A stretch of 64,000 nt of DNA from Acidimicrobiaceae bacterium. GTDB lineage: Bacteria > Actinomycetota > Acidimicrobiia > Actinomarinales > Actinomarinaceae. The notes below the pieces were generated by a model, which was given only the letters and a program-made list of their open reading frames with translations, had not been told where the DNA came from and ran no database searches. Position numbers and translations under genes: made by a program. This document shows, piece after piece, positions 2,423-35,238 of the stretch. Every line of letters starts with the position of its first letter. The first letter of the stretch is position 1. The stretch is taken from the NCBI GenBank assembly GCA_028344675.1, contig JAOMBT010000004.1, positions 4,692 to 68,691 of the forward strand. Direction: 5' to 3'.

Positions 2423-3691
2423 TTAAATCCTTTCAGTACTTTTAATAAATTTACTTCCTGTAGTGTCGAAAACTATATTTTCAAACGCTTCAAAATTTAT
2501 ATTAGCAAATTGGGTGTGAGGTGTTAAGACTAAAAGCATGTCATAATTTTTAAAATTACCTACCGACAATTCTTTAGTTACATTTGTATCAGAAATTACT
2601 ACATTATCAACAAAAGGATCATAAAAAGATACATCTGAATTCTTTTCTATTAGAAGTTCAATAATATCAAGCGCCGGTGATTCCCTCATGTCACTAATAT
2701 CTTTTTTATATGCCACACCTAATATTAAAATTTTAGAATTTTTTAAAATTTTATCTTTAGAATTTAACAACTCACTTACTCTAGTAACAACATAGGAGGG
2801 CATGGAATTATTTATTTCTTGAGCTAATTCAACAAATCTAACTGGTTTACCAATTTGACGAGTTTTAAATGATAAATATTCTGGATCAACTGGTATGCAA
2901 TGACCCCCTACACCAGGTCCTGGAGTGAAAGATTGAAAGCCAAAAGGTTTTGTTTTTGCAGCATTAACAACTTCCCAGATATCAATTTCTAACATTTTGC
3001 AAAGCATTGCTAATTCATTTATTAGTGCAATATTTACATGTCTGTAAGTATTTTCCAGCAACTTAACCATTTCAGCTTCTTTGGTTCCATTTACTATTAC
3101 AGTTTCATCAATAATAGACTCATAAAAAATTTTAATTTTTTCTAAAGAATTTGCATCAATACCACTAATAACTTTAGGAGTATTTTTAAACTTCCACTCT
3201 TGGTTTCCTGGATCGATTCTTTCAGGAGAGTAGCCTACAAAAAAATCATCTCCTGCTTTAAGACCTGAGTATTTTTCAAGATTTGGAATTAATACCTCAA
3301 TAGTTGTTCCAGGATAAGTAGTTGATTCTAAAATAATAACTTGGTTTTTAACTAAATTTTCTCCTACTGCTTTTGCAGCAGATATAACATATGAAAGATC
3401 AGGCTGGTAATCAGTTAGCGGTGTTGGAACGCTAATAACTACATTATTACAGTTTGCAAGTTTTGAAGAATCAGATGTTGCAGTGAAGTTTTTTAATACA
3501 TCAGCTAACTCACTATCACTAACATCTTCTATTGGTGATAGTCCTTTATTAATATCGTTAATTCTAGATTCATCAATATCAAATCCAAGAACAGAGAGAT
3601 TTCGATTTGCTGATTCAACTGCTAAAGGCAAGCCGACATACCCCAAACCTACAACTCCTAGATCATAAATAAAAGATGTTTCTTCAGACAT
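2423..3691 (-). CDS. Nucleotide-sugar 6-dehydrogenase (UDP-ManNAc/UDP-GlcNAc dehydrogenase, WecC/TviB-like)
   Basis: UDP-glucose/GDP-mannose dehydrogenase family motifs: Rossmann GVVGLGYVGLPLA, ESTTYPGTT, GYSPERIDPGN and catalytic GGHCIPVDP. I moved the start from the track's 3739 (TTG) to ATG 3691. That ATG has a GAGGAA Shine-Dalgarno 5 nt upstream and overlaps the upstream stop by 8 nt. Confidence 0.85.
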   Translation of the reverse strand: MSEETSFIYDLGVVGLGYVGLPLAVESANRNLSVLGFDIDESRINDINKGLSPIEDVSDSELADVLKNFTATSDSSKLANCNNVVISVPTPLTDYQPDLSYVISAAKAVGENLVKNQVIILESTTYPGTTIEVLIPNLEKYSGLKAGDDFFVGYSPERIDPGNQEWKFKNTPKVISGIDANSLEKIKIFYESIIDETVIVNGTKEAEMVKLLENTYRHVNIALINELAMLCKMLEIDIWEVVNAAKTKPFGFQSFTPGPGVGGHCIPVDPEYLSFKTRQIGKPVRFVELAQEINNSMPSYVVTRVSELLNSKDKILKNSKILILGVAYKKDISDMRESPALDIIELLIEKNSDVSFYDPFVDNVVISDTNVTKELSVGNFKNYDMLLVLTPHTQFANINFEAFENIVFDTTGSKFIKSTERI

Positions 3692-4763
3692 ATATTTCCT
3701 CATATATTCTCTGAGATGTTTTTCCATCCCAAAAATCAATTTTATTATTATTCGATAGTTTAGTAATCAGTGAGGTGTTTATTTCACTTATAATATTTTT
3801 GTTAACTCCAATTACTTTATTGGTACCCAATTCAACTGTGATAGGTCTTTCAGTCTCATCTCTTAAAGTTAGACACTTTTTGTTTAAATAAGTAGTTTCC
3901 TCCTGTAGGCCTCCTGAATCAGTAAGACACAGTGTTGAATTATAAACAAGGGAAAGAAATTTTATATAAGGTTGTGGATCAATTACTTTAAATCTAGAAG
4001 TATTAAAATTATTTTCTTGAATGAAAGCCTTTAATCTTGGATGTGCAGGTATAACAATGTCATGATTATCTGTAAATTCTAAAAGTCCATCAAAAATTAT
4101 CGATAGTTTTTCATCAATAAGATTTGCTGGACGATGAAGCGTCAAAACAAAATAATCTCTATTGATTGAAAATTCTGATGAGATTTTATTTTTACTTGAA
4201 GTAATTTTTTCATAATTATCAACTAAGGTATCTATCATAATATTGCCAACATTAGAAATTTTTTCCATGGAAATATTTTCATTTAATAGATTATCTACAG
4301 CATCTGGAGAAGGGGTAAATAATTTATCGCATATTGAATCGACCATTATTCGATTTCTTTCTTCTGGCATATTTAAATTATTTGACCTTAATCCTGCTTC
4401 TACATGAAAACAGTCAACTGAATTATTTTTTGCTACTATTGCACCTGACAAAGTTGAGGTAACATCTCCAAATACAAATAAACTTTTTGTTGTATTAAGA
4501 TTTATGTAATCATCTAATCCATTAATTATGCTTCCCAGTTGAATGTTCATAGATTGGTTATGTATGTCCAAATTAATATCCGGTTTTCTTAATCCAATAT
4601 CTTTAAAAATATCTTCAGACATATTTTTATCCCAGTGTTGACCGGTATGGATAAATAGTACTTTTTTGTTTTGCTCTTCGAAATAACGCAAAAGCGGTGC
4701 TACTTTTACAAAATTTGGTCTAGCACCAACAATCATTGCAGTATCATATTTTGTTTTTGTCAC
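3684..4763 (-). CDS. wecB: UDP-N-acetylglucosamine 2-epimerase (non-hydrolysing, WecB/MnaA-like)
   Basis: Epimerase_2 family motifs: MIVGARPNFVKVAPL, HVEAGLRS, MPEERNR, DSGGLQEE. GTG start at 4763, with ATG 4736 as an alternative. Coupled to the downstream dehydrogenase. Confidence 0.85.
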   Translation of the reverse strand: MTKTKYDTAMIVGARPNFVKVAPLLRYFEEQNKKVLFIHTGQHWDKNMSEDIFKDIGLRKPDINLDIHNQSMNIQLGSIINGLDDYINLNTTKSLFVFGDVTSTLSGAIVAKNNSVDCFHVEAGLRSNNLNMPEERNRIMVDSICDKLFTPSPDAVDNLLNENISMEKISNVGNIMIDTLVDNYEKITSSKNKISSEFSINRDYFVLTLHRPANLIDEKLSIIFDGLLEFTDNHDIVIPAHPRLKAFIQENNFNTSRFKVIDPQPYIKFLSLVYNSTLCLTDSGGLQEETTYLNKKCLTLRDETERPITVELGTNKVIGVNKNIISEINTSLITKLSNNNKIDFWDGKTSQRIYEEIYV

Positions 4764-4816
4764 GTTTACTATATTAGTAGGTATTAATAATCAAATTATT
4801 AACTATTATTGAATCA

Positions 4817-5737
4817 GTGAAAAGAGTTGTACTTAATTTATGCGGTATTAAATCTAAAGGTGGTATTAATATTGCAAAAGACTTTATTAAAAATAATGAT
4901 CATCTAAGCCTATTTATAATCTTTGATAACGAAGAATTTTATGAATTCATTGAAAAGTATGAAAAAAAATTCATAAATATTCCACGTTATTTACATCCCT
5001 TTTTAAGCTTGTTCATAAGTAAAGCAACAAGAAAAAAAATTAACGGACACGATTTAATAATTCACTTTGGAAATTTTGGATTTAAATCAAAAATTAAAAG
5101 TTTAACTTTTATTCAAAACATACTTCCATTAGTGACACCCTTCTCTTCTTTTAGAAATCTTTTTCTAAGAATTCTCTATAAATTTAACTTTTCTATATCT
5201 GATGAAATCATCGTTCAGCAAAAACATGTGGCTGAACTTATAAGTTCAAGTAAAACGAAAATAATTGGAAACATAATTTATAAAAAAATAAAGCAGAACA
5301 ACGTTGGTGGATTTGTTGTAATAATTGAAGATAATATAAATAAAAATCCAAATTTTTTAATAAGGGTAGTAGACAAGTTAATTGAATTAAATTTTAAAGT
5401 TACCGTAATCAATACCTCAAAATTTACTATTTCAAATAAGGCAAAAGTTGTAATAAGTCCTAGTCATGAAGAACTACTAGAAGTTTTTAACAAAAACCAA
5501 ACATATATTCATGCCAGTGATTATGAAACTGTAGGCTTACCAATTTATGAAGCACTTAACAGTGGTCTCAAAGTAGTTGTTCCAAAAAAAGATTACATTT
5601 CTATTGAAAATCCAAATATTTATAAATATAAAATTGGTGATATTGAGTCAATTATTCAAGCTTGTTTGGATTCAGCAAATAAAAAAAGTGAGTTTGAAGA
5701 AGTCCCTATTTATTTTGAAGATTGGAAATTAACTTAA
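4817..5737 (+). CDS. Putative glycosyltransferase (GT-B fold, GT4-like C-terminal half)
   Basis: The C-terminal pattern HASDYETVGLPIYEALNSGLKVVV resembles the GT4 E-x7-E region. The N-terminal half is not recognisable. GTG start. Confidence 0.5.
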   Translation: MKRVVLNLCGIKSKGGINIAKDFIKNNDHLSLFIIFDNEEFYEFIEKYEKKFINIPRYLHPFLSLFISKATRKKINGHDLIIHFGNFGFKSKIKSLTFIQNILPLVTPFSSFRNLFLRILYKFNFSISDEIIVQQKHVAELISSSKTKIIGNIIYKKIKQNNVGGFVVIIEDNINKNPNFLIRVVDKLIELNFKVTVINTSKFTISNKAKVVISPSHEELLEVFNKNQTYIHASDYETVGLPIYEALNSGLKVVVPKKDYISIENPNIYKYKIGDIESIIQACLDSANKKSEFEEVPIYFEDWKLT

Positions 5738-6952
5738 ATCATTAATAATTTTTTTAGAAGTGAAATTACTATCAAAAGTTTTGTAATCAAAATTAAACTC
5801 ACCAAGTTCAAACACTTTTAAAAATTTATCAATTTCTTCATTTGATGTATTTTTGTTAATAATTTTAAAATTTTTAAATAAATCTTCAAATTCATATAAA
5901 GGGTCATCTTTAATTTCTGCAAAATGCAAGACTGGTTTACCTAGGGATATATATTCAATAACCTTACTTGGTAATTGATATTTATTAAAATTACCAATAG
6001 AGAGAAGAATATGCATTTCTTCTAACATAATCTTTGTTGCTTTATCTCTTGAAACTAAATCATAAATATTATGAATCTGATTGATACTAATTTTATTTAA
6101 GAATTTTTTTGATTCTTGGTTCGTATACCAAAAATGTTCAAATTTATCACTATAAAAATTATGGACAAGTTTTAAATAGTTTTCAGGGTCTCTAACTCTA
6201 TCAGTAAAAATTCCAAAGTATCCTATCTTCAAAGGTTTCTGAGAATAATTATAATTTATTGATTTTGAAAGTGAGTTTTTGTCAATTAACCCTATCGGGT
6301 ATCCATTCACTACTTTTGATGCTGGAATATCAAAATATTTCATATGTAATTCTGATGCTTCTTTATGTGTGAAAATAATTTTTGAAGCATTTTTATAATA
6401 TTTTTTTTCAATAAAACGATTGATAAATGAAAAAAGAAACTTGTTATTTTCAGATGAAAATTTTTTCAATGAAAAAGGATCTCCTATATCCATATACCAT
6501 TCTGCATTTAACCTTTTAGTTAGCAAGTAAGCACATACGTGAGAGGTAAAAGGAAGACTAATTGATATTATTATGTCATAGTCATCATGAATCTTTTTTT
6601 TATTTTTGTAAATTGTAAAAATCCAAAACATCGCATAGTCAGGCCAAGCAAAAGTTTTAAAAAGAAAACGATATATATGCTTTAGAATTCTAAATATCAA
6701 CTTTTTTAAGTTAGAACTTCTTGAATCATTAGAATTTTGTCGAACAGTATTAATGACACCTGATATGCTCTTATTGCCAAAATATAACACCTTGTAATTC
6801 TTAGCAGATGCTTGGGGTCTAGTACCTGAAAGAACTGTAATATCATTACCTTGATCTACAAGGTAATCAATTAATAAGCTCCACCTTGTAGTTCTCGGAC
6901 TTACATGTGGTAAAAATTGGTGTGTAACAATTAGTATTTTTTTATTTTTCAT
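5729..6952 (-). CDS. Putative glycosyltransferase (GT-B fold, GT4-like)
   Basis: N-terminus KILIVTHQFLPHVSPRTTRW and C-terminal LPSKVIEYISLGKPVLHF are typical of divergent group-1 glycosyltransferases. Soluble, located inside a glycan operon. Confidence 0.55.
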   Translation of the reverse strand: MKNKKILIVTHQFLPHVSPRTTRWSLLIDYLVDQGNDITVLSGTRPQASAKNYKVLYFGNKSISGVINTVRQNSNDSRSSNLKKLIFRILKHIYRFLFKTFAWPDYAMFWIFTIYKNKKKIHDDYDIIISISLPFTSHVCAYLLTKRLNAEWYMDIGDPFSLKKFSSENNKFLFSFINRFIEKKYYKNASKIIFTHKEASELHMKYFDIPASKVVNGYPIGLIDKNSLSKSINYNYSQKPLKIGYFGIFTDRVRDPENYLKLVHNFYSDKFEHFWYTNQESKKFLNKISINQIHNIYDLVSRDKATKIMLEEMHILLSIGNFNKYQLPSKVIEYISLGKPVLHFAEIKDDPLYEFEDLFKNFKIINKNTSNEEIDKFLKVFELGEFNFDYKTFDSNFTSKKIINDLS

Positions 6953-8318
6953 AATTTTTTAAATTTAGTCCAAAAGATATAGCTATTGCCAAATGTGTTG
7001 CCAATTCCTCTGCTTGGTAAGAATATACAAATAAAGTTGTAATAAAACTAATTAATAGATACGGCTGTAATGGCGTTGGTTTAAACACTATCTTTCTTAA
7101 AATTTCTATCAAAATATATAAAAACCAAAGTAAGCCCACCAAACCTGTAGACATTAAAATATTTGCATATAGATTATTAAATGACACCACCTGCCCAGGA
7201 TTTCTATAGATAATTTGATTTTCAACTAACTGCTTTCCAGCTTCATCAGCAGCATAAGAAAAAGCAATATTTGAATATCCATAGCCTTCTCCAAATAAGG
7301 AAAAGCCAGCATTTTGAATATATTCTAGAAGAAAAGCTGTGTTACCAAAGGCATCCAGACCTTGAGAGCTTATTTCCCTAAAGCGACCAAAGGTACCTTC
7401 TGAAAAACTAGATGAATTCTTTAACTCGTCTAACCTATCCTCTGGTGTGCAAACACACTCTAAACTATTAGCATTACAAGTATTTTCATCAGGTGGAAAT
7501 TGATATGAAAAAATACCAGAAGTAAAAATTACTAACAAGAAGATAGACAGCATTGATATAATATTTAATTCAAACTTCTTATGTAGTAGGTAAAGCAAAA
7601 CAGTAACTATGATGATTGCGGCAACAAATGCTATTATTCCAGTCAAACTTCTACTTAAAACAACACTAAAAATAGGAATTAAGGAGAGAGCATACCATAC
7701 CTTATTTTTCTTACCTAAATAAAAGAAATACGGAATGAATGGAACAGTCCATATAGCTAAGAAACTAGGTTCTCTAAAAGTTCCATAATTTCTTAAAATA
7801 TTGCATGCTCTTTGAATAGGCTGAGTCCAACCTCCAGAACCTGGTCTTGTTCTTGGAAAATCACTATAGCCATAGATATACGAAAAGTAACTAACAATAG
7901 AGAGTGTTGATATAACAATGCTAGATATCAAAAAGAATTTAAGTATTTTTTCAAAATCGTGTTTTTGTAAAATATAATTTATCGAATAAATAACAATCAA
8001 GAAAAGGAGTAATCTCAAGAGCCTTAAACTTATATATTGGAAGTAAGAGGTGCTTGCATATTTTGGAAGTATTAGATCATTAAAAAAAGATTGAATTAAA
8101 GTAATAAAAATTCCATAAATAATCCAATTTCTTATTGAGAATAAATTTAAATTAAATGTTCTTAACCCTAAAAAGTAACAAATTAAATAAACTACCGATA
8201 AAAAAGATACTCCGATCCAGTATATTGGAATATTTTGAATTGAAAAAGCATCCAGTCCCTCAAATACTAAAAATGCACTGAGTGAATATAACAATATATT
8301 TGAATATTTTAAATTCAA
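6942..8318 (-). CDS. Polytopic membrane protein, O-antigen polymerase/ligase-like (Wzy_C type)
   Basis: Ten or more hydrophobic segments. Contains an SRSLTGIIAFVAA motif, then a roughly 120-aa hydrophilic loop with CNANSLECVC, followed by FNNLYANILMSTGLVGL. Shares GTFREPSFL with the ORF at 51904-53259. TTG start overlaps the upstream stop by 4 nt. Confidence 0.6.
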   Translation of the reverse strand: MNLKYSNILLYSLSAFLVFEGLDAFSIQNIPIYWIGVSFLSVVYLICYFLGLRTFNLNLFSIRNWIIYGIFITLIQSFFNDLILPKYASTSYFQYISLRLLRLLLFLIVIYSINYILQKHDFEKILKFFLISSIVISTLSIVSYFSYIYGYSDFPRTRPGSGGWTQPIQRACNILRNYGTFREPSFLAIWTVPFIPYFFYLGKKNKVWYALSLIPIFSVVLSRSLTGIIAFVAAIIIVTVLLYLLHKKFELNIISMLSIFLLVIFTSGIFSYQFPPDENTCNANSLECVCTPEDRLDELKNSSSFSEGTFGRFREISSQGLDAFGNTAFLLEYIQNAGFSLFGEGYGYSNIAFSYAADEAGKQLVENQIIYRNPGQVVSFNNLYANILMSTGLVGLLWFLYILIEILRKIVFKPTPLQPYLLISFITTLFVYSYQAEELATHLAIAISFGLNLKNYEK

Positions 8319-9928
8319 CTTATCCTCTTGTATCCATTAGAAAATTGGACTTTAACTCCTTCATTTTCCTCACCCCATGAAGTATATTCCTCTAATTCAA
8401 CATCATTTGAGAAATCTTCAATACTTACTTTTCCATCGCTTATAGATATTTTGCGGTAGACTTTTTTTCCATTAAATTCAACAGAACCTAAAAAGCTTTC
8501 TTTATCAAAATGCAATACTTCCCCATCACTCATATAGTTCAATTTAAAACAATCAAACTCATCTTCTTTGGGAAATTTCATTTTAGGTTTTGGTCCCCAA
8601 TGGTATTCAAGTGATCTAAATCTATTTCTAATTTCAATATCATCGGTATATGTACCAGTACCAGGATCTCTAGCTATCCATTTACTGTCAGCAAAGCACT
8701 CTATTGAAAGTTGATCATAGTGAGAATGTCCACCTATTCCATTTTGACCTATAGGCCCACATCGAATACTGAAATATTCATAATCATTTCTCCATATATA
8801 AATACCAAACTCTTTAAAACTGTAACTCTTATAATCTTTTGTAAATACTTTGATTGGTTTATGAGTAACTTTATTAAAGGTATCAAACAAGGGTGGGCTA
8901 GATGTAATCTCATAGTTAAATTTTTTATACTCTTCCTCAATTTCAGAGTTAAGATAAAGACTTCCAATTAAATCAATTAACCAAGTCATTTTTAAAGGGG
9001 CTTCTTCATCAAATTTAAAGTAAAATAATCTTCCAGAATCATTATCTCCAATTTGTGATAACTCATCATTATTGATTAGTTTTGATAAAAGAAATCTGTT
9101 TGTTTTGACTATATTGTCAATTTTGGGAATAAGATTAGAGTTGATGTCTACTTCTTCAATTGCAAGCTTACAAATTATAAGAGCTTCTGTTACAAAAGCA
9201 GAATAGTGACTGGATCCCTCAAAATTAGTTCCATCTTCATAAAATTGGTTATTTAACTGAGATAAAAGTTCATTTTGATAATATTGAAATTCCTCTTTAT
9301 CATTATCAAATTTAAATGTAGCTATTGTTAGTAAAATAGATGTAAGTTCTACTAAATAATGATTACCAATAACATTTCCTTTATTTTCTAAATTAGTTGT
9401 TATAAATTCATAATGTTGACTTATATAAGAAGTCAACAAATCAATATTATTTCCAAGAATTTCACCAGATTGCTGTGAATTTTCAATTGAAATAAGTTGA
9501 AATATTAAATTAATATTTCTTATTGCAACATCCATTGGACTATTCCAATAAATTAATGGAAACTTATTAACGTCGATACTTCCTGCATTAGCTTTTTGTA
9601 AATACTGTAACCTTGATGCCTCGTAGGGAACCTTTACATCAGCCTTATTAAAAAAAGCTGGTTTTAACTTTTTATTTGAAAAATCAAAATTTGAAAATAT
9701 ATCCTCTGATATCTCGTATTTATTGGAATTCCTACCAAATATTTTTAGATTATCATTTAAATCAACTAAATATTGATCACTTGGTGTACATTCTCTAATT
9801 ATAAATTTTTGAAAATCAGAATCTCTTCGATTAAATATTCTAAAACTTGATGGGATTTCAATTTGAGGTTGAAGCAAGTTATAAATGAAGTATTTAACTT
9901 TTTTGAGAATTGTTTTTAAACTAATCAT
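8315..9928 (-). CDS. Heparinase II/III-like (alginate-lyase-fold) protein, apparently cytoplasmic
   Basis: GNHYLVEL, EGSSHYSAF and GIGGHSHYDQLS resemble the conserved N/H/Y and H-x-H-x-D blocks of the heparinase II/III family. There is no N-terminal hydrophobic signal or TM segment. Confidence 0.55.
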   Translation of the reverse strand: MISLKTILKKVKYFIYNLLQPQIEIPSSFRIFNRRDSDFQKFIIRECTPSDQYLVDLNDNLKIFGRNSNKYEISEDIFSNFDFSNKKLKPAFFNKADVKVPYEASRLQYLQKANAGSIDVNKFPLIYWNSPMDVAIRNINLIFQLISIENSQQSGEILGNNIDLLTSYISQHYEFITTNLENKGNVIGNHYLVELTSILLTIATFKFDNDKEEFQYYQNELLSQLNNQFYEDGTNFEGSSHYSAFVTEALIICKLAIEEVDINSNLIPKIDNIVKTNRFLLSKLINNDELSQIGDNDSGRLFYFKFDEEAPLKMTWLIDLIGSLYLNSEIEEEYKKFNYEITSSPPLFDTFNKVTHKPIKVFTKDYKSYSFKEFGIYIWRNDYEYFSIRCGPIGQNGIGGHSHYDQLSIECFADSKWIARDPGTGTYTDDIEIRNRFRSLEYHWGPKPKMKFPKEDEFDCFKLNYMSDGEVLHFDKESFLGSVEFNGKKVYRKISISDGKVSIEDFSNDVELEEYTSWGEENEGVKVQFSNGYKRIS

Positions 9929-26650: not shown

Positions 26651-27569
26651 CTTTAACCCAACCTATAGTTTTATTTAAACCCTCTTCTAATCCAATATCA
26701 GGTTTCCAGTCAAGTATGTTTTTTGCTTTACTTATATCTGGTTTTCTTTGAGTAGGGTCATCATCAGGTAATTCTTGATAGTTTACTCCAGATTTTGATT
26801 CAGTAAGTTGAACTATGGTTTCTGCTAGTTGCAGAATTGTTATTTCATTTGGATTACCAATATTAAAGACTTCATTACTTTCTGAATCCATTGCTTTAAT
26901 TATTCCAGCAACGGTGTCACTTACATAACAGAAGCTTCTTGTTTGGTTCCCTTTTCCATAAATTGTTATATCTTCTCCATTTAATGCTTGAACTATAAAA
27001 TTTGTCACAACTCTTCCATCATTTAATTTCATTTTTGGACCATAGGTATTAAATAATCTAACAATCCTTGAATCAATATTATAAATTCGGTTATAACTTG
27101 ATACTGCTGCTTCAGCAAACCTCTTCGCCTCATCATACATACTGCGTACACCATTAGGATTAACTCTCCCCCAGTAGGACTCCGGTTGAGGTGAGATTTC
27201 TGGATCTCCATATACTTCTGAAGTAGAGGTTAACAAATATTTAGCATGTTTTGCTTTTGCTAAACCTAAAGTGTTTATAGTCCCAATACTCCCTGCTTTA
27301 AGAGTATTAATTGGATTATCAGTATAGGCTTTTGGAGAGGCTGCACTTGCAAGATGCAAAACATAGTCAACTTCTCCGTCTATTTGTATATGATTTTGTA
27401 CATCTAGGTCAATAAAAGAAAAGTTTTTAGATTTAGTGAAATTATCCAAATTTGCTTTTAAGCCAGTTAGAAGATTATCTACAACAATTACATTGTGGCT
27501 TTTTTCAAGAAACTTTTCTACAAGATGTGTCCCAATAAAGCCCGCCCCACCAGTTATTACAATATTCAA
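26637..27569 (-). CDS. UDP-glucuronate decarboxylase (UDP-xylose synthase, UXS-type SDR)
   Basis: ITGGAGFIGTHL, TSTSEVYGDP, YDEAKRFAEA, RLFNTYGPKM and DGRVVTNFIVQAL match the UXS signature blocks. TTG start 1 nt after the ugd stop. Confidence 0.8.
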   Translation of the reverse strand: MNIVITGGAGFIGTHLVEKFLEKSHNVIVVDNLLTGLKANLDNFTKSKNFSFIDLDVQNHIQIDGEVDYVLHLASAASPKAYTDNPINTLKAGSIGTINTLGLAKAKHAKYLLTSTSEVYGDPEISPQPESYWGRVNPNGVRSMYDEAKRFAEAAVSSYNRIYNIDSRIVRLFNTYGPKMKLNDGRVVTNFIVQALNGEDITIYGKGNQTRSFCYVSDTVAGIIKAMDSESNEVFNIGNPNEITILQLAETIVQLTESKSGVNYQELPDDDPTQRKPDISKAKNILDWKPDIGLEEGLNKTIGWVKANLN

Positions 27570-27570
27570 T

Positions 27571-28776
27571 TTATTCCCACATCTTAAGCATAAAAGTATT
27601 GTTAAGAGACCTAATTTTTGATATCAGTATTTTTCTTTCATCAGAAACATCAGGAAACATTTCTACATATAAACAGTTAGCTTTTAAATCATCTAATTTA
27701 GCAATAAAAGAATAATCGCTATTTAAATCAATATTTTTATCAAAAATAACAATATTTAATCCTTTATTTTGTAATCTGTCATAGATTTTAAGAGTAGGTG
27801 ATTCGCGTAAATCATCTGTATTTTCTTTAAATGCAGCACCAATTAATACAATGCTGTCTATGTCTTGCTGATTTGCGATATTAAATAAATTTTCAGAAAA
27901 CCAGTCCATTTGCAATTCGTTAGATTCAATTATTTTTGAAATAAGCGGTAATTTATTTTGACCATTATAAGAGTTTTCAACCTCTTTTACATCTTTAGGA
28001 AAACAAGATCCACCCCATCCAGGAGAGGGTCTAAAATAATTATTACCGATTCTGATATCTTTACCTATCGCATTAAGAACTTCTAAAGGGTTTCCACCGT
28101 TATCTTTAACTAACCTATATGTCTCATTAACAAATGACAGTCTCATTGCTAAGTACGTATTTGACAAATATTTTATCATTTGTGAACTTATTGGATCTGT
28201 GGAAATTAATTCACAATCAAAGTCTTTATACAAATTAAGACATTTTTGAATTACATCATTATCTTGCCCTCCTACAACCACTCTATCTGGATTAAAAAAA
28301 TCATCGAGTGCGGAACCCTCTCTTAAAAATTCAGGATTAAATACTATTTTACTGAAGTCAATATCGATTTTGTTACAAATTTCCTCAACTAATTGACTTT
28401 TTACTGTTGACTTTATACAAATATTAAAATTATATTTTTCAAGTTCTTTTAATTTTTCTAATACACTTTTTATAAACTTAGTGTCAGTTTTTCCAGAATC
28501 TAAGTTTGTTGGTGTTTGAACACAAACAAAAACTAATTCTGTATCTTTATCTATACCTGATTCATATTCACTACAGTAATTAATGTTCTCAATTACTAAT
28601 TTATCATTTATATACTTTTGTAAATCTGGTTCATAAAATGGAAGTTCAAAATTCTTTAGTTTTTCAATTAGAGAAGTGTTTAGGTCAATAATGGAGACTC
28701 TGTTGTTTAGTTTAGCAAAACCAATTCCTGTAATTAATCCCACATATCCAGCACCGATTATTGAGATATTCATCAT
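27571..28776 (-). CDS. ugd: UDP-glucose 6-dehydrogenase
   Basis: IIGAGYVGLITG, NPEFLREGSA and catalytic GGSCFPKD. Directly upstream of the UXS gene. Confidence 0.85.
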   Translation of the reverse strand: MMNISIIGAGYVGLITGIGFAKLNNRVSIIDLNTSLIEKLKNFELPFYEPDLQKYINDKLVIENINYCSEYESGIDKDTELVFVCVQTPTNLDSGKTDTKFIKSVLEKLKELEKYNFNICIKSTVKSQLVEEICNKIDIDFSKIVFNPEFLREGSALDDFFNPDRVVVGGQDNDVIQKCLNLYKDFDCELISTDPISSQMIKYLSNTYLAMRLSFVNETYRLVKDNGGNPLEVLNAIGKDIRIGNNYFRPSPGWGGSCFPKDVKEVENSYNGQNKLPLISKIIESNELQMDWFSENLFNIANQQDIDSIVLIGAAFKENTDDLRESPTLKIYDRLQNKGLNIVIFDKNIDLNSDYSFIAKLDDLKANCLYVEMFPDVSDERKILISKIRSLNNTFMLKMWE

Positions 28777-28834
28777 ATTTATAATACATAAATATAGTTT
28801 ATAGATTTAAGTTAAAATTATTAATGAAACTTGT

Positions 28835-29932
28835 ATGATATATTTTTTAGCACATTCAGATTGGATACTTTTTAATTCAAGAAAAGAAATAGCAACACAT
28901 TTAAATGAACTGGATTATTCAGTTAATGCTATAACAACTGAAGAGGCATATAAGGAAGATTTAAAAAAGTACTTTAATAGCTTCTATAAGTGGAAAGTTG
29001 ATAGAAATAAACTTGTTGACTTAAAAGGGATAATTAATCTTAGAAAAATTTTAAAACAGCTTACTGAAAACGATATATTACATGTTTTTACACTTAAATC
29101 TGGATTGTATGTCTTATTTGCCTCCCATTTTATGAAAAAAAAATATAGAGTTGTATTATCTATTACCGGTCTAGGATATTTATTTTCAAAAAATAACGGC
29201 AGCAAAGTCTTAAGGAATATTTTGAGATTTTATATGAAATATTTTTTTAATAGAAATATTGATGTACTAATTTTCCAAAATCACAAAGATGAAAAAGTAT
29301 TTAAAAACTATTTAAATTATAAAAATCAAACATTTCTAATTAAAGGTAGCGGTTTAAACTTACCAAGTTTTTCTTTAAAGAGTTACGAAGATAGTAGGGA
29401 TAAAGAAATAAAAATTATTATGTGTTGTAGATTACTAAAAGATAAAGGGATTGATGAATATTTCAAATTAACGCAATTGTTTGATAATAATAAATACAAA
29501 TTCTATTTAGCTGGCAATGTAGATCCAGGAAACCCTTCGTCATATTCTCAAAGGGATATAGTAAATCTTACAAAGAAATTTAATATCGAATATTTAGGAT
29601 GGATAAATACAACAAAAGAACTTAAAAATTTTGATATTTCTGTTTGCATGTCCTATCACGAAGGTCTGCCAAGAATAGTTTTAGAGTCTCTCTATATTGG
29701 TTTATATACTATATCTAATAATTTACCTGGATTGAGAAATATATTTGATGAATATGACAATGGAATATTGATAAGCGAAAACAATTTATTAGAGTTTCGT
29801 AATGCAATTACAAATTTTGTAGAGATAGAAAATATCACAAACAAAATACAGTATTCACGACAAAAAGTAACAGCTAATTTTTCAACTGAAACAATTGTTG
29901 AAGAATTTATAAAAGTATATAAAATATTATGA
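28835..29932 (+). CDS. Glycosyltransferase family 4
   Basis: SYHEGLPRIVLESLYIGLYTISNNLPGLRNIF is the E-x7-E region. Confidence 0.75.
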   Translation: MIYFLAHSDWILFNSRKEIATHLNELDYSVNAITTEEAYKEDLKKYFNSFYKWKVDRNKLVDLKGIINLRKILKQLTENDILHVFTLKSGLYVLFASHFMKKKYRVVLSITGLGYLFSKNNGSKVLRNILRFYMKYFFNRNIDVLIFQNHKDEKVFKNYLNYKNQTFLIKGSGLNLPSFSLKSYEDSRDKEIKIIMCCRLLKDKGIDEYFKLTQLFDNNKYKFYLAGNVDPGNPSSYSQRDIVNLTKKFNIEYLGWINTTKELKNFDISVCMSYHEGLPRIVLESLYIGLYTISNNLPGLRNIFDEYDNGILISENNLLEFRNAITNFVEIENITNKIQYSRQKVTANFSTETIVEEFIKVYKIL

Positions 29933-30963
29933 AAGAATTTCAACTTTCCATCTTTGTAGTATTCTTTATTGGTCTATTCATTTCACTGGTATTAAACAAA
30001 TTGTCACTAAGTTTTAAGGGGTATTTTAAACAAGGTAATAGAGAGGATGAAATCAGATTATCAAATGTAAAAATACCAACGTTTGGTGGAATATCTATGT
30101 CTTTAGCTTTTTTGATATCGATAAGACTTCTTGGGAAAGTTGATTCTGAAATTATTCAGATTGCTATCTATGCAGTTTTTATCACCTTAATAGGTTTCCT
30201 TGATGATAGATATAATTTAAATTGGAAACTAAAACTGTCTTTACAATTTTTTGCTGTAAGTACACCTATTTATTTACTTAACATATATCTAAATATTGAA
30301 ATGCTGATAGGTGTAAATTTTAGTAATAATTTGAATATTTTAATCACTATTATTTGGATAATACTTTTAGTTAATTCTTTAAATTTTTTAGACAATATGG
30401 ATGGTTTAGCTGCAACTACTGCAACGATGATAGCGTTCAGTCTTGCGATTCTAAGTTACATTACAAATCAATACAAATTGACAGATATTTCCGTCGTTTT
30501 AATAGCATCAATGCTGGGGTTTTTAATTTATAATTTGCCAGATGCAAGGCTCTATATGGGTGATTCTGGGAGTCTTTTTATAGGCTATTGCCTTGGTTTT
30601 ATAAGTGTGTTATTTTCTTGGAATAACAGTATTGAAAGTTCTTGGATTTTTCAAATTCAGCCAGTAATTTTGTTTTTTACAATACCCCTTATTGATTTCA
30701 CGACTGTGATAATTTCTAGAATTAAACAGGGTAAATCACCAATGACTGGCGGTACTGATCATATTTCGCATAGGTTATTAAAAAAAGGGTACTCAAATAA
30801 TCAAGTATTAATAATTTTTATATTCATGTCAATAATTGTACTAGTAGTAACTATGGGGATTCTTTATCTTAACCAAACATTGTCTTTTTTATTCTTGATT
30901 CTGTATGCGTTCTTGGTATTTGCAGCTTTGTTCTATTTCCTTAGATTAGAAATTCTAAATTAG
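29929..30963 (+). CDS. wecA: Polyprenol-phosphate N-acetylhexosamine-1-phosphate transferase (WecA/TagO, MraY-like family)
   Basis: About 10-11 TM segments. Contains DDRYNL, NFLDNMDGLA and MGDSGSLFIGY, the Glycos_transf_4 motifs. Confidence 0.85.
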   Translation: MKEFQLSIFVVFFIGLFISLVLNKLSLSFKGYFKQGNREDEIRLSNVKIPTFGGISMSLAFLISIRLLGKVDSEIIQIAIYAVFITLIGFLDDRYNLNWKLKLSLQFFAVSTPIYLLNIYLNIEMLIGVNFSNNLNILITIIWIILLVNSLNFLDNMDGLAATTATMIAFSLAILSYITNQYKLTDISVVLIASMLGFLIYNLPDARLYMGDSGSLFIGYCLGFISVLFSWNNSIESSWIFQIQPVILFFTIPLIDFTTVIISRIKQGKSPMTGGTDHISHRLLKKGYSNNQVLIIFIFMSIIVLVVTMGILYLNQTLSFLFLILYAFLVFAALFYFLRLEILN

Positions 30964-31659
30964 GCTTTCGTATTTTTCTACCGCCTCCGGAGTTCCAGCA
31001 TCTATCCACCATCCATTGATAATTTGATAGCTTAAATTATCAATATTTAAATATCTAGTAAGCAAACTCGTAATTTCATACTCTCCTCTAGAGGATGGTT
31101 CAATAGATTTAATATATTCAAAGCAATTCCCATCTAGAAAATAAAAGCCTACTGCAATCAAATTTGATTTAGGTAATTTTGGTTTTTCTTCAAATGATAA
31201 TATATTATTGTTAGCTAGCTCAACTACACCAAATTCCTGAGGGTTCTCAACTTCCATCAAAAATACAGTAGGTTTTTCTGATTCATAATTTGTATCTAAA
31301 ATTGGATTAAATTCAAAAAAATTATCACCTAGTATATAAAAAACTTTTGAGTTTTTTTCTACCTTTTCGTTTGCCTGAAGTAGTGCATGGGCAACCCCTA
31401 GTTGCTCATCTTGAATTACATATTCAATATTTTGATTTGGAAAATTTTTACATACTTCGTTTTTAATTAAATCATCAAAATTTGGATTAGTAATAATTAT
31501 GAAATTATCAAGACCCCAGGAAATAAGCTGCTTTAATTGGTGGGTTATCATAGCTTCTCCATTAATTTGTAAAAGCATTTTAGTAGCATCATTTTTTCTG
31601 AAATTTAGTAATCGCTTTCCTAAACCGCCTGCAGCAATAACTGTGTAAATTTTTGTCAT
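30955..31659 (-). CDS. Sugar-1-phosphate nucleotidyltransferase (RmlA/GalU-like, short form)
   Basis: IAAGGLGKRL, LGVAHAL, EKPKLPKSN and RGEYEITS are NTP_transferase motifs. Confidence 0.75.
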   Translation of the reverse strand: MTKIYTVIAAGGLGKRLLNFRKNDATKMLLQINGEAMITHQLKQLISWGLDNFIIITNPNFDDLIKNEVCKNFPNQNIEYVIQDEQLGVAHALLQANEKVEKNSKVFYILGDNFFEFNPILDTNYESEKPTVFLMEVENPQEFGVVELANNNILSFEEKPKLPKSNLIAVGFYFLDGNCFEYIKSIEPSSRGEYEITSLLTRYLNIDNLSYQIINGWWIDAGTPEAVEKYESLI

Positions 31660-31715
31660 AATTTATCTTTTTATATCTTTTAATTAACTCCTATGATTAT
31701 AGTTGTTGTTTGGAA

Positions 31716-32828
31716 ATGAAAAATAGAAATATATTATTGGGTATTGTTATTATTGCTATTTCTGTTGGTGGTGTATTAATCTACAATCTAATTCCACAAT
31801 TTGAAACTACTGAATTTGATCAAGAATCAATTATCCAAATAAGTGAAGGTGCTACGACAACTATTAGTTCATCAGATACTTCACCAAGTACAACTACTAC
31901 AGATGTTTTTGATGAAGAACTAATTGATATTCAACCTTCAAAAATTCAAACTATACTTGCAAATAATTCTACAAATGACATATCTGAATATTTTGAAACC
32001 TATCTATTAGTAGGTTCCGATAAAAGAAGTAAAGATAGTTCACTTTCAAGAGGATTTGTGCCAGGTCAGAGAGCAGATGTTATTATCCTTGCCCTAATCA
32101 GCAAGGATGATGAATCAGTCTCATTAGTCTCACTTCCAAGAGATTTACTCATAAAAAACCCTTGTACAGACGAGATACAAAGAATTAATTCAACTTTTCA
32201 AAAAAATGATTGTGGTAATGCAGCTGAAAATTTGTCTGCAACTATTTTAAATGTTACTGGTTTACTTGTAGATAATTTTGCATTGTTTACTTTCGAAGGT
32301 TTTGAAAAGATTATTGATGCATTAAATGGAGTAGAGATATGTCTACAAAAAGCACAGAGAGAGGGTTACTCATTTGAGCTTAATGCAGGATGTCAGATAG
32401 CTAAAGGTAGTGTTGCTTTGAATTGGGTTGTCTCAAGAAACACTGAAATAATGGTTGGCGAAAAAATACTAGATGAAAATGGAAATGATGCTTCAATTTG
32501 GGAACCAATGGCTGGAATAAGTGATTTGTATAGAGTAAAAAAACAACAAGAAATAGTAATTTCTTTACTAAACAGATTGAATGAGTTTAATTCATACACC
32601 GACTTATATAATCTAATTAAAGCTTTAGAACTAACCTTCACAATTGATGAAAACTTAACAATTCCTAATGCTACTCAATTATTGTGGGGGTATAGAAATT
32701 TTAATTTTGCTGAAGTGACAAAACTTACAGTTCCAACTCAACCTTATAGAACTCAAGATGGCAAGGAAGTTCTAGTATTAACAGAAAATTTCTATAATTT
32801 TATAATTTCTCAAGATCTTCTTGATTAA
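31716..32828 (+). CDS. LytR-CpsA-Psr (LCP) family glycopolymer-to-peptidoglycan phosphotransferase
   Basis: N-terminal TM anchor, a Ser/Thr-rich linker (SSSDTSPSTTTT), then YLLVGSDKRS, RADVIILALI and SLPRDL. ATG 31716 is preferred to TTG 31710. Confidence 0.85.
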   Translation: MKNRNILLGIVIIAISVGGVLIYNLIPQFETTEFDQESIIQISEGATTTISSSDTSPSTTTTDVFDEELIDIQPSKIQTILANNSTNDISEYFETYLLVGSDKRSKDSSLSRGFVPGQRADVIILALISKDDESVSLVSLPRDLLIKNPCTDEIQRINSTFQKNDCGNAAENLSATILNVTGLLVDNFALFTFEGFEKIIDALNGVEICLQKAQREGYSFELNAGCQIAKGSVALNWVVSRNTEIMVGEKILDENGNDASIWEPMAGISDLYRVKKQQEIVISLLNRLNEFNSYTDLYNLIKALELTFTIDENLTIPNATQLLWGYRNFNFAEVTKLTVPTQPYRTQDGKEVLVLTENFYNFIISQDLLD

Positions 32829-35238
32829 TTTTTGAATCTTTTAATCCAAGTAAAAGTGTAAATAATATCATTGCATCAGGAGAGTAAATCAAATCATTTG
32901 TAATATTGTGAATTAAAAAATAAAGTAGGCAAATATTTAAAATTATTAAAGAATCATTTTTTTTATAATTAAATTTTTTAAATACTAGATAAATAAGTGG
33001 TGTAAAAAAAATTAATCCCTTTAATAACCCATATTCAACAAAAAAAGTTAGATACCCATTATGAGCAGTTGTAAGTTGGCTTAAAAAAGCACTACTAACT
33101 ATAGGTGCTTGATCATTATCAAGCTTCCCATTTTTTTGAACTAAAACACCTGACCTTAGACTCATGTCCCCTACTTGATTCACATATTCACCATCTGAAT
33201 TTGTCCAACTTAAAAATAGTCTTCCATCATCAATATCTACTTTCCAAGACTGAACATCATCAGTAAACGCAGAGGTATTTGAAATTAGTGTTTGAGTTTC
33301 CCAAGGAATTTCAGGTAATGAAACTTCCAAAATAATTTCAAAATCTTCATTAAAATTAAATTCGTTATCTATAGCTAGCCAGTATTTATTTGGTCTAAGT
33401 AGTTGAATGCCATTATCATCAAAAATAACATTTCCCTTATATTTTCTTAAAGAATTTACTTCATAAAGAGAATATTCATTATTTAGTCCATTTTTTTCGA
33501 AATTAATTTTTTTAATCTTATCATCATTTATTATTTCAAGAGATTTTACACTTCCATCTAGCCAAGTATTACCAAAAGATTGTCCATCAACAAATCCTCC
33601 TATTTCGATAACACCATCATTTTTATTGAATTCAATAATTTCACCTGTATAGTGTGGAAAACCTACCAAATCCCAACTGACTCCATCTCCAGATGTATAA
33701 AAGCTAATTTTTGACCTAGGTAATAAATAATCATATTTGTCATATGCTATTTTTATAAAACCCTTTATATTTCTAAATTCACACTCATTACAAATCTTGT
33801 AAAGATTTTCTTCTGGTAATACAGTATTTCTTATAAATAAAGATTCAGTAATTACAGCTAATTCGCCAATTGCTAATGGTCTGTCTTTACATGAGTAAAC
33901 CTTATTAACCTCGCATTCAACAAATATATTATTCGAGTACAAATAACTAAAATATGAATTATGCAAACTTTCTTTATCTATATCCTCGAAACTAAATATC
34001 TGAAAATCTGAAGATAAAATTCTTAATTCGTATGCTATACAAGCAAATTCGCCTCTAGTAACTAAATTTTGATCATTATTAGCTCTACAATTATTAAGAA
34101 CAGTTTCGAGTTTTATATTATTACTAATATCAAAAATTTGAAGAAAATTTAATACTGTGTCAGCGTCAACTCTAAAATATTGACATGTGTCTCTGTCATC
34201 AGAACATGGTTTTGTAATGAAATACTGCTGTAAGATTTCAAAACCACCACCAGATGTTCCAATAAAAAAGTCTATATCAGTATCTCTATATTCTTCAGGG
34301 GTTATCCCCAACTCAACTTTATTTAATTTAATATTTAAGTTCTCTTCAAGTATTTCTGGATTAATCGATAATAAATAAGGCTCATAGATTTTATTTATAT
34401 ACTCCCCACCACCAACACCATCGAATACTTCTATATTTGAAATAGCAATATTAGCAAGTAAAGATCGGTCATTTTCTTTTAATATATAACTTGACGGACC
34501 AAAATACAATAAGCTCATAACAATTGCAGCTAACCCAGATACATAAAAAATTTGAATTTTTGTAGAATTAATTTTTAAAAATATGAATACGATTGATACA
34601 AATATAAATGCTAAGTAACTACCTCTTGAAAAAGTTAATAAAAATAAAAATAAATTTATAAAAGCAAAAGAAAAATAATACTTTTTATCAGTAGTTTTAT
34701 AAGTGTAAAAAAACAAAATAGATAACAGTCCAAAAATTGTTCCAGCAACATTGGGGCCAGAACCTTGAAATCCAGAAAGCCTTCCAGATAAAAATATATT
34801 TGTAGTATCAGAATAATTTGTAATCCATCCTATAGAATTTCCTAAAAAAGATTGTTGGGTTAAGAATGCTGCAATGCTAAAAATACTTACAATGATTAAA
34901 GAATCAAAAATTACCGATATTTCACTATCACTTAATTTATTAAGGACTTTTTTGAATAAAAAGCCAAGTGTTACGTAAAGTACAAACCTAAGAGTTGTTG
35001 TGTTGAATCCATCAAAAATAAAAAATAAAATTAAACAAAAAATTGTAAATATCCATGCAAAATCTTCTTTTTTCTTTATCTCGAAATTTTTAAATGATAG
35101 AAATAATAGATAAATAAATAACAAAATTATTGGAATATCTGAAAATTCTAAAATTGCAATTTTTCCAATACTAGGGGGAATTATTAGAGAAAGACTAAGT
35201 AGGCTTCCAATCAATCTTAAGCTTGTATTTTTATACAT
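32800..35238 (-). CDS. 812-aa Wzy_C/O-antigen-ligase-like membrane protein with a roughly 480-aa extracytoplasmic insertion (Cys-rich region plus concanavalin/LamG-like beta-sandwich sequence)
   Basis: Residues 1-246 have about 9 TM segments, including FSRGSYLAFIF. Residues ~247-725 are hydrophilic with 8 Cys, and include ...FEIILEVSLPEIPWETQTLISNTS...WKVDIDDGRLFLSWTNSDGEY, a LamG_3-like pattern. Then come AHNGYLTFFVEYGLLKGL plus 2-3 C-terminal TM segments. Confidence 0.6.
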   Translation of the reverse strand: MYKNTSLRLIGSLLSLSLIIPPSIGKIAILEFSDIPIILLFIYLLFLSFKNFEIKKKEDFAWIFTIFCLILFFIFDGFNTTTLRFVLYVTLGFLFKKVLNKLSDSEISVIFDSLIIVSIFSIAAFLTQQSFLGNSIGWITNYSDTTNIFLSGRLSGFQGSGPNVAGTIFGLLSILFFYTYKTTDKKYYFSFAFINLFLFLLTFSRGSYLAFIFVSIVFIFLKINSTKIQIFYVSGLAAIVMSLLYFGPSSYILKENDRSLLANIAISNIEVFDGVGGGEYINKIYEPYLLSINPEILEENLNIKLNKVELGITPEEYRDTDIDFFIGTSGGGFEILQQYFITKPCSDDRDTCQYFRVDADTVLNFLQIFDISNNIKLETVLNNCRANNDQNLVTRGEFACIAYELRILSSDFQIFSFEDIDKESLHNSYFSYLYSNNIFVECEVNKVYSCKDRPLAIGELAVITESLFIRNTVLPEENLYKICNECEFRNIKGFIKIAYDKYDYLLPRSKISFYTSGDGVSWDLVGFPHYTGEIIEFNKNDGVIEIGGFVDGQSFGNTWLDGSVKSLEIINDDKIKKINFEKNGLNNEYSLYEVNSLRKYKGNVIFDDNGIQLLRPNKYWLAIDNEFNFNEDFEIILEVSLPEIPWETQTLISNTSAFTDDVQSWKVDIDDGRLFLSWTNSDGEYVNQVGDMSLRSGVLVQKNGKLDNDQAPIVSSAFLSQLTTAHNGYLTFFVEYGLLKGLIFFTPLIYLVFKKFNYKKNDSLIILNICLLYFLIHNITNDLIYSPDAMILFTLLLGLKDSKINQEDLEKL

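Follow-up and report, generated by a model that had tools for sequence, protein, structure and literature searches.

Allelic exchange as the likely source of diversity in a syntenic cell-envelope glycopolymer locus of Candidatus Actinomarina

Introduction

Does a surface-glycan locus vary between strains because its genes are replaced by other genes, or because different versions of the same genes are exchanged? The question is raised by a block of 29 open reading frames (ORFs), g01 to g29, that lies between ppc, encoding phosphoenolpyruvate carboxylase, and a tRNA-Met gene in a 64,000-nucleotide stretch of DNA from an Acidimicrobiaceae bacterium (contig JAOMBT010000004.1 of assembly GCA_028344675.1, positions 4,692 to 68,691). 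This entire stretch is called the window below. Surface-glycan islands are a standard example of strain diversity in marine bacteria and are usually described as gene-content swaps, and a first-pass annotation of the window had likewise read the block as a strain-hypervariable region built from exchangeable cassettes. We consider it likely that the block is instead a conserved cell-envelope glycopolymer supercluster, syntenic throughout the order, whose alleles are exchanged by homologous recombination.

Judged from sequence, the window is Candidatus Actinomarina, genus G2 of the order Actinomarinales. The first-pass description of the genome as minimal fits this placement, as the text of PMC7771536 gives a size of ~1.1 Mb for Candidatus Actinomarina genomes. 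A dnaG scan of species-representative genomes yielded about 47 loci from Candidatus Actinomarina/Actinomarinales. The closest genomes by dnaG are the single-cell genomes AG-333-M17, AG-390-B19 and AG-333-E10 (genus G2, genomospecies 4, or G2.4), followed by AG-349-A01 and AG-426-D23 (G2.1), with names and genomospecies as given in Table S1 of PMC7771536. The relatives examined amount to some 45 genomes, single-cell or metagenome-assembled, and some 40 contigs from metagenomes. Their loci, which carry L numbers here, were anchored on dnaG, ppc, g08 or g24, and the window proteins were mapped onto the fetched loci by tblastn.

Gene order across Actinomarinales

An ORF scan agrees with the first-pass annotation that 29 genes occupy positions 2423-35238. 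These non-shadow ORFs stand back to back over 32.8 kb with gaps of at most 84 bp, and two shadow frames (24677-25444 and 25879-26247) fall within the block. The coding strand flips 10 times, giving 11 strand blocks, exactly as had been counted. This pattern had been taken as a sign of assembly from cassettes. However, in all relatives examined, from every genus sampled, the interval from ppc to tRNA-Met holds the same gene families with order and orientation unchanged, and for this reason the strand pattern is ancestral to the order and no sign of recent cassette assembly.

There are some 40 dnaG-anchored loci, and wherever the locus is long enough they carry tRNA-Asn, the SCP2-domain ORF, tRNA-Met and g29 to g22 in the order and orientation of the window, even in genera whose dnaG is only ~50% identical. 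The order of g01-g08 is kept in the ppc-anchored metagenome contigs. Synteny extends through ppc and g01-g19 in the g08-anchored loci L116-121 (with identical ORF lengths in L116-118), and through dnaG and g29-g14 in the g24-anchored loci L122 and L125/126. The distant genera (L127+L019, L128) retain this scaffold without the three glycosyltransferase genes g15, g17 and g20. In AG-913-F10, two overlapping loci of one single-cell contig (L019 and L127) together span the whole interval, which measures 29.5 kb. Thus, the block is a fixed, order-wide syntenic locus and not a gene-content replacement island.

Sequence identity at the boundaries and inside the block

The identity of the block does not follow that of the core. 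Averaged over six core and six block genes, protein identity between the window and G2.4 is 89-90% in the core and 49-50% in the block, whereas the corresponding values for the window and G2.1 are 79% and 67-68%. The same kind of disparity is seen between other relatives, with 93% (core) and 50% (block) for L003 and L004 and 97% and 65% for L011 and L009. The first-pass annotation regarded the same genes in the same order at core-like identity as evidence against a hypervariable locus; genes and order are indeed shared throughout the order, and the identity is far from core-like in these comparisons.

The changes in identity coincide with the proposed conserved flanks, since the steps lie exactly at ppc and tRNA-Met. 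Sliding nucleotide identity between the window and G2.4 is 76-90% from lepA to SCP2 and then 55-66% from position ~35419 inward. L009 and L011 are 92-98% identical in the core and drop to 53-77% at tRNA-Met, and single-cell genomes of the same species are ~95% identical in the flank and 53-77% identical inside the block. In every case the change at tRNA-Met is stepwise with no gradient. The signal also flips at the ppc/g01 junction, where L116 and L119 pass from 85-90% in ppc to 57-84% inside the block, while the window and L116 pass from 71-79% in ppc to 76-89%. There are also relatives with equal identity on both sides, namely L013 and L011 (~83% in core and block) and the homogeneous genus represented by L019-L029 (97-98% in both).

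Divergence is concentrated in certain modules. The g03 protein is 34-72% identical in relatives whose neighbouring genes are 56-86% identical, and g15-g17 are 41-53% identical to the window in L119-121 as opposed to 74-85% in L116-118 (50% and 74-76%, respectively, for g15 alone). The sub-modules g03-g04, g15-g17 and g20-g22 therefore show the exchangeable-cassette behaviour that the first-pass annotation had proposed, even if the strand pattern it relied on does not indicate assembly. Precursor enzymes diverge too: the UDP-glucose dehydrogenase differs by ~55% between haplotype families. The best-conserved block gene is g14, with 83-92% identity in relatives. Metagenome contigs tend to break at tRNA-Met (L122 and L129 start there), in g03/g04 and in g20-g23.

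A separate observation concerns the g17/g18 junction, at which the two genes are divergently oriented. In L119-L121 (locus positions 123-1694) this junction holds an extra gene for a 523-amino acid (aa) protein with Rieske and metallo-beta-lactamase-like domains, and the adjoining g15-g17 are of a different allele.

Core and block phylogenies

Neighbour-joining trees with 100 bootstrap replicates place the window in two different positions. The core tree groups it with L002 and L037, that is, with genomospecies G2.4, in 100/100 replicates. The block tree groups it with L003 and L007, that is, with G2.1, also in 100/100, and unites L002 and L037 with L004, L006 and L010 in 100/100. The window is nearer to G2.1 than to G2.4 in all eight of the block genes compared, and the reverse is true of all six core genes. 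There is a second, independent swap, which sets L009/L015 against L011/L013/L014/L016. Both haplotype families are present in both sister clades.

Variation within a single species

At least 23 public contigs encode a dnaG protein identical to that of the window, and each of them extends into the block. Five or more independent assemblies with this identical dnaG run from leuS through tRNA-Met to g22, and their haplotype family is that of the window, at 95-98% identity. Nucleotide identity within this species is 99.6-100% in the core (36-47 kb) and 95.4-98.3% in the right part of the block (25.7-35.2 kb). Farther left (7-23 kb), contigs with an identical g13 protein, which occurs in 58 index blocks of public assemblies, are 97.2-99.6% identical to the window. 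Two TARA contigs (L080/L081) match at 99.8% from ppc to g03 and end in g03/g04, and L129 is 93.3% identical to the window.

The most local difference is found in L137/L138, two contigs that are otherwise ~99% identical to the window. Their g21-g22 segment is only 78-80% identical at the nucleotide level (78-87% for g21 alone and ~79% for g22). Thus, even among near-clonal relatives, divergence inside the block is about ten to thirty times that of the flank, and the hot spots are glycosyltransferase modules. The first-pass term 'strain-hypervariable' is apt for sequence divergence and for the core-discordant phylogeny, but not in the sense of gene-content replacement, as the genes and their order are the same.

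Base composition and flanks

The first-pass annotation proposed a comparison of composition between the block and the remainder of the window, and no difference is found in GC content, GC at third codon positions (GC3) or codon usage. The GC content is 28.0% in the block and 29.2% in the right half, the respective GC3 values are 0.189 and 0.188, and no codon-position GC differs significantly (Mann-Whitney p>0.15). Codon usage correlates between block and core with r = 0.995, which exceeds the correlation between two halves of the core. The same small dip in GC, amounting to 1-2 points, is present in the block of relatives. The composition of the block matches that of the core, and nothing points to a foreign origin.

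The left flank, ppc, has an ORF of 807 aa in the 100%-identical TARA contigs L080/L081, and its orthologs in L120/L127 match PF00311. Left of ppc in relatives are ordinary genes, for an M15 peptidase, MMPL, NIF3, RNase H, TauE and a luciferase-like oxidoreductase, and there is no tRNA gene. In the distant lineage L128 (20617-21780) the M15 peptidase gene and not ppc adjoins g01, indicating that ppc is absent or has moved there. On the right, the SCP2 (sterol-carrier-like) ORF lies between tRNA-Met and tRNA-Asn at every Actinomarinales locus examined and is the last conserved gene before the variable block.

Exchange of alleles and competing explanations

In the reading we favour, whole haplotypes or sub-modules are replaced by homologous recombination, with crossovers falling either in the conserved flanks (ppc on the left; tRNA-Met/SCP2/tRNA-Asn/dnaG on the right) or within the block in conserved genes, for example g14, g19 and g23. 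In consequence, the versions found in strains of a single species are much further apart than the core genomes of those strains, and the same version families recur in different species. The driving force is likely to be selection of a diversifying or frequency-dependent kind that acts on the outermost wall polymer, and phages that use the polymer as a receptor would be its most plausible agents.

Several points weigh against this reading or limit its detail. The results are compatible with trans-species polymorphism and with repeated transfer between species alike. The identities derive from tblastn high-scoring pairs and from 500-1000-bp MAFFT/BLAST bins rather than from curated orthologue alignments, and the comparison with the closest core relatives (G2.4) covers g22-g29, the right of the block. 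As to the glycopolymer itself, its chemistry is deduced from domain families, most NCBIfam matches are below their equivalog cut-offs, and no TagA-type, chain-length-regulator (Wzz/PCP family) or ABC-exporter gene is present among the 29 ORFs.

There is also a more specific proposition, which we regard as possible though somewhat short of probable. Perhaps the several fully syntenic haplotype families (~50% protein identity, 26-29 genes), which coexist within species and are shared across species or genomospecies, constitute a long-lived balanced trans-species polymorphism. This would fit because divergence within a family tracks that of the core, as for L013 and L011, and because both families occur in both sister clades.

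Other explanations account for parts of the evidence. It is quite unlikely that the block is a classical flexible island of the replacement type, wherein unrelated gene sets built from exchangeable cassettes alternate between the same flanks. Such an island would have the conserved flanks and sharp boundaries seen here, there are small differences in content (the three glycosyltransferase genes missing in distant genera and the extra Rieske-domain gene of L119-121), and a glycan flexible island, fGI1, has been published for the same order (PMC7771536). Nevertheless, the gene families, their order and their orientation are shared by every relative examined, ORF lengths are usually equal as well, and none of the varied pathways listed for fGI1 (sialic-acid-like sugars, heptose, ketodeoxyoctonate (KDO) and restriction) is found at the ppc-tRNA-Met locus in any relative examined. 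Fixed gene order, together with core-like composition and codon usage, might also be expected of a core cluster that is vertically inherited and, without any exchange between lineages, merely evolves rapidly because selection on it is relaxed or positive, and the genus L019-L029, whose block is as homogeneous as its core, would suit such a history. This is very unlikely, given that the core and block trees conflict at 100/100 in two separate groups, that the window changes its nearest genomospecies consistently between eight block and six core genes, and that identity forms a step rather than a gradient at tRNA-Met.

The proximity of two tRNA genes, and the tRNA-targeted cassette insertion that PMC7771536 reports for the published island of the order, bring to mind an integrative mobile element or its remnant inserted at tRNA-Met. 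The first-pass annotation had already dismissed an integrative element, and its view is borne out by Pfam and repeat searches. No integrase, recombinase or transposase domain is present in the 29 block ORFs or the SCP2 ORF, and tRNA-Met, tRNA-Asn and tRNA-Ala have no copy of at least 12 nucleotides elsewhere in the window, the longest matches being 10-11 nucleotides, which is chance level. ARAGORN and Rfam detect no tRNA gene between 2423 and 35238. With the core-like composition, and with the block at the same site in every genus of the order that was sampled, a mobile element is highly improbable. Equally hard to credit is an assembly or binning chimera, in which core and block would stem from two different populations and meet at the conserved tRNA genes. 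The window does come from a metagenome-type contig, and breaks at tRNA-Met or within the block are frequent in metagenome contigs. However, the five independent assemblies with identical dnaG cross leuS-tRNA-Met-g22 with the same haplotype family, the TARA contigs join ppc to g01-g03 at near identity, and the same identity step appears between single-cell genomes, which cannot be population chimeras.

Relation to known surface-glycan loci

Loci for surface-glycan diversity are a known kind, already reported in general terms for the order, and the block is one of them. According to the text and Table S3 of López-Pérez et al. (2020, mSystems, PMC7771536), fGI1 is an order-wide envelope-polysaccharide flexible island of 43-79 kb with 28% GC, five tRNAs and direct repeats of tRNA fragments. 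It has a fixed location, varies within species and undergoes partial replacement by smaller cassettes, and strains have different gene families in it, among them those for sialic-acid-like sugars, heptose and KDO, tagD/tagF and restriction systems. As far as those two sources describe fGI1, the block shares with it the order, the envelope-polysaccharide function, a GC content of ~28%, order-wide presence, within-species variability and a tRNA gene at the boundary. The block differs in being 33 kb long (29.5 kb in AG-913-F10), in lacking internal tRNA genes and repeats and in having a fixed gene set. On this comparison, it may be part of fGI1, adjacent to it or separate from it. A paper on long-read metagenomics makes no mention of the block. 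The same text states that gene families were clustered at 95% identity, and at this threshold syntenic but divergent orthologues would count as different genes. In general, pangenome clustering at high identity would call the locus 'different genes' and gene-family methods would call it 'core', and both would miss its nature.

Two broader classes of loci invite comparison. The pneumococcal cps locus between dexB and aliA and the Escherichia coli O-antigen cluster between galF and gnd are loci of the replacement type. The Actinomarina block resembles them in that conserved flanks act as recombination arms, serotype-like versions move both within species and across them, and glycosyltransferase and polymerase genes are the most variable components; the LCP (LytR-CpsA-Psr) family gene also has a pneumococcal counterpart in cpsA. 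However, the serotype-specific centre of these loci varies in gene content, whereas the Actinomarina block keeps its order of 26-29 genes and its versions differ by sequence, down to ~50% amino acid identity. Allelic syntenic loci are exemplified by Staphylococcus aureus cap5/cap8 and by the Lactococcus lactis cwps cluster, which determines phage sensitivity, and the product of this class is a wall-linked polymer that serves phages as a receptor. These loci share with the block a fixed site, a largely common order and type-specific glycosyltransferase/polymerase modules. They differ in that most of their genes are nearly identical between types, whereas in Actinomarina the precursor enzymes diverge as well, and for Actinomarina we infer the use of the polymer by phages.

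What is unusual about the block is that its diversity resides in sequence alone, within a frozen order of 26-29 genes, and that haplotype families are shared across species. If these families are long-lived, they would offer a clean natural system for the study of frequency-dependent selection, presumably by phages, and of recombination boundaries in an abundant uncultured ocean bacterium. If the polymorphism is indeed balanced, the locus would give a genome whose size is extremely constrained a serotype-like diversity of its surface while the gene content stays the same.

Predicted glycan products

The block appears to encode two lipid-linked pathways. The left part, g01-g17, would produce a Wzx/Wzy-type heteropolysaccharide begun by the small phosphoglycosyl transferase g09, with flippase g07, the polymerase-like g16 (and possibly g05), the WecB/WecC-type pair g02/g01 and amidotransferase g08 as its further members. 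An initiating phosphoglycosyl transferase, a Wzx flippase and a Wzy polymerase are encoded together, in that the matches to PF02397, PF13440 and PF04932 are all above their cut-offs. Genes g11-g14 may form a four-gene route to a 6-deoxy-N-acetylhexosamine-type sugar, and the precursors of the left pathway are probably sugars of this type and of the N-acetylmannosaminuronic-acid type.

The right part, g18-g29, would make a uronic-acid-rich polymer begun by the WecA/TagO-type enzyme g26, its chain being built by four glycosyltransferase family 4 (GT4) enzymes. A nucleotidylyltransferase, a UDP-glucose dehydrogenase and short-chain dehydrogenase/reductase (SDR) enzymes would supply this pathway, and the putative LCP ligase g28 would attach the polymer to peptidoglycan. 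The pair typical of an LCP-attached wall glycopolymer, a WecA/TagO-type PF00953 protein and an LCP protein (PF03816), is present. Pfam detects no polyol-phosphate genes (glycerol- or ribitol-phosphate; tagD/tagF, tarI/J/L) and no TagGH exporter among the 29 ORFs. Because of this, and because there are two uronic-acid-forming dehydrogenases, the products look like phosphate-free, teichuronic-acid-like wall polymers. Such polymers, as suggested by the absent polyol-phosphate genes, would suit a phosphorus-poor habitat. The tua locus of Bacillus subtilis likewise makes a phosphate-free anionic wall polymer with a UDP-glucose dehydrogenase, GT4 enzymes, a flippase, a polymerase-like membrane protein and LCP attachment. 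It differs in that the match to the TuaD model reaches only 232.5 bits against a cut-off of 700, and in that its gene order is unrelated.

Gene inventory

Domains were called with Pfam and NCBIfam on the 29 ORFs, and 27-28 of these could be assigned (Table 1). The first-pass statement that every gene is glycan-related is therefore nearly right, as nearly all carry glycan-synthesis domains. Its counts of two initiating transferases (g09 and g26), twelve nucleotide-sugar enzymes, one Wzx-like flippase, one LCP ligase and one heparinase II/III-like protein are reproduced, the twelve being sugar-precursor enzymes by Pfam/NCBIfam. Of the nine glycosyltransferases it had listed, eight are clear or weak GT-B/GT-A enzymes (g03 weakly, and g10, g15, g17, g20, g21, g22 and g25), while g04 gives only a faint GT4 hint and has no Pfam match at E<=0.001. 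The three proposed Wzy_C-like proteins fare unequally. The g16 protein exceeds the Pfam cut-off and the N-terminus of g29 (residues 16-255) is homologous to the g16 family (hhalign probability 98.4%, E 7e-15), but g05 does not reach the cut-off and a profile comparison with g16 detects no similarity, which leaves the Wzy assignment of g05 weak.

Table 1. Features of the glycan block and its flanks in the window.
Feature	Position	Strand	Evidence and remarks
ppc (phosphoenolpyruvate carboxylase)	1-2400	-	Left conserved flank; last 7 codons beyond window start
g01 nucleotide-sugar dehydrogenase, UDP-ManNAc/UDP-Glc dehydrogenase family	2423-3739	-	PF03721, PF00984, PF03720; TIGR03026 430.7 bits, above cut-off
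g02 non-hydrolysing UDP-GlcNAc 2-epimerase (WecB/MnaA type)	3684-4763	-	PF02350 284 bits; TIGR00236 271.5 bits (cut-off 210)
g03 GT1-like glycosyltransferase, weak assignment	4817-5737	+	PF00534 24.1 bits, below cut-off; variable module g03-g04
g04 407-aa protein, probably GT-B glycosyltransferase, faint evidence	5729-6952	-	PF13439 E=0.009; weak GT4 match in L127 ortholog
g05 polytopic membrane protein, possible Wzy-type polymerase	6942-8318	-	PF04932 27.2 bits, below 31.7 cut-off; seven hydrophobic segments
g06 heparinase II/III-like	8315-9928	-	PF07940 44.2 bits, above cut-off; no hydrophobic segment
g07 Wzx-like flippase	9921-11132	-	PF13440 36.8 bits (cut-off 23); eight hydrophobic segments
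g08 AsnB-type glutamine amidotransferase	11132-12970	-	PF00733, PF13537; TIGR01536 422 bits
g09 small polyprenyl-phosphate sugar-1-phosphate transferase, initiating enzyme 1	13036-13659	+	PF02397 196.6 bits; C-terminal catalytic domain of WbaP/EPS sugar transferases
g10 GT4 glycosyltransferase	13656-14828	-	PF13439 38.1 bits
g11 second non-hydrolysing UDP-GlcNAc 2-epimerase	14825-15979	-	PF02350 268.7 bits; TIGR00236 247.9 bits
g12 RmlD-like reductase	15981-16964	-	PF04321 53.3 bits
g13 cupin 3,5-epimerase-like	16894-17352	-	PF00908 34.5 bits
g14 SDR epimerase/dehydratase	17352-18287	-	PF01370 117.8 bits
g15 GT4 glycosyltransferase	18305-19453	-	PF00534 109.2 bits; variable module g15-g17
g16 Wzy_C polymerase/ligase-like membrane protein	19380-20543	-	PF04932 41.1 bits (cut-off 31.7); eight hydrophobic segments
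g17 GT2 glycosyltransferase	20540-21253	-	PF00535 90.4 bits
g18 SDR, nucleotide-sugar 4,6-dehydratase/epimerase family	21338-22327	+	PF01370, PF16363; NCBIfam matches all below equivalog cut-offs
g19 SDR, nucleotide-sugar epimerase/dehydratase family	22311-23285	+	PF01370, PF16363
g20 GT4 glycosyltransferase	23297-24457	+	PF00534 116.1 bits
g21 GT4 glycosyltransferase	24447-25592	+	PF00534 93.4 bits; in module varying within the window's own species
g22 GT4 glycosyltransferase	25589-26650	+	PF00534 46.7 bits
g23 SDR, UDP-sugar epimerase/decarboxylase/dehydratase family	26637-27569	-	PF16363 171 bits; NCBIfam below equivalog cut-offs
g24 UDP-glucose 6-dehydrogenase-like	27571-28776	-	PF03721, PF00984, PF03720; TIGR03026 311.6 bits
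g25 GT4 glycosyltransferase	28835-29932	+	PF00534 64 bits, PF13477 43.5 bits
g26 WecA/TagO/MraY-family polyprenyl-phosphate N-acetylhexosamine-1-phosphate transferase, initiating enzyme 2	29929-30963	+	PF00953 115 bits; TIGR02380 120.5 bits, below cut-off; eight hydrophobic segments
g27 sugar-1-phosphate nucleotidylyltransferase	30955-31659	-	PF00483 134.5 bits
g28 LCP glycopolymer-to-peptidoglycan ligase	31710-32828	+	PF03816 81.6 bits; TIGR00350 63.6 bits (cut-off 62.3); one N-terminal hydrophobic segment
g29 812-aa Wzy-like membrane protein, right-boundary gene	32800-35238	-	Large Cys-rich non-membrane middle domain; Pfam match very weak
tRNA-Met (CAT)	35255-35329	-	Right boundary of variable block; ARAGORN and Rfam
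SCP2-domain ORF, 95 aa	35336-35623	-	PF02036 52.2 bits; conserved right flank
tRNA-Asn (GTT)	35667-35740	-	Conserved right flank; same position in relatives
dnaG	35764-37401	-	First core gene of right flank; TIGR01391 328 bits

The architecture of g29 is distinctive in that the membrane domain is fused to a non-membrane region of ~450 aa in which seven cysteines are invariant. Neither a Pfam match (E<=0.1) nor a relative among solved structures (PDB) was found for this middle domain. An ortholog in a distant genus (L019:12152-14137) is 661 aa long and 36-42% identical, and it lacks ~150 aa corresponding to the Cys-rich insert.

Database relatives of g08 have identities of 98%, 87%, 82% and 76%, and a protein identical to g24 is on record in NCBI as P0121. 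The heparinase-like gene of L139 (14585-15393) looks truncated; a run of 100 Ns there marks a scaffolding gap and no real disruption.

The remainder of the window

The right half of the window is almost wholly encoded on the minus strand, as the first-pass annotation had described for its housekeeping half. It is not free of glycan genes, however, since it includes uppS (undecaprenyl-diphosphate synthase), located just past dnaG and glyS, another GT4 gene and a second Polysacc_synt flippase. There are two plus-strand genes in this half, an ion-channel ORF (55022-55420) and the gene for ribosomal protein S20. The latter, encoding 76 aa, is annotated in the own-species contig L131 (1439-1669) and corresponds to window positions ~45733-45963 on the plus strand.

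A second small glycan-type module is located at 49041-54599 within the housekeeping half. It consists of the GT4 gene (49041-50150), two unknown ORFs, a membrane protein with 10 segments (51904-53259) and the Polysacc_synt flippase (53291-54568), which overlaps the start of tRNA-Ala (54526-54599). Two ORFs among the core genes, 45952-46611 and 50197-50847, have no family match, GC contents of 20.5% and 24.3%, respectively, and no hydrophobic segments. Finally, a VWA (CoxE/MadC-like) protein and an AAA_5 (MoxR-like) ATPase are encoded as a pair at 55977-58137, adjoining proA and proB.

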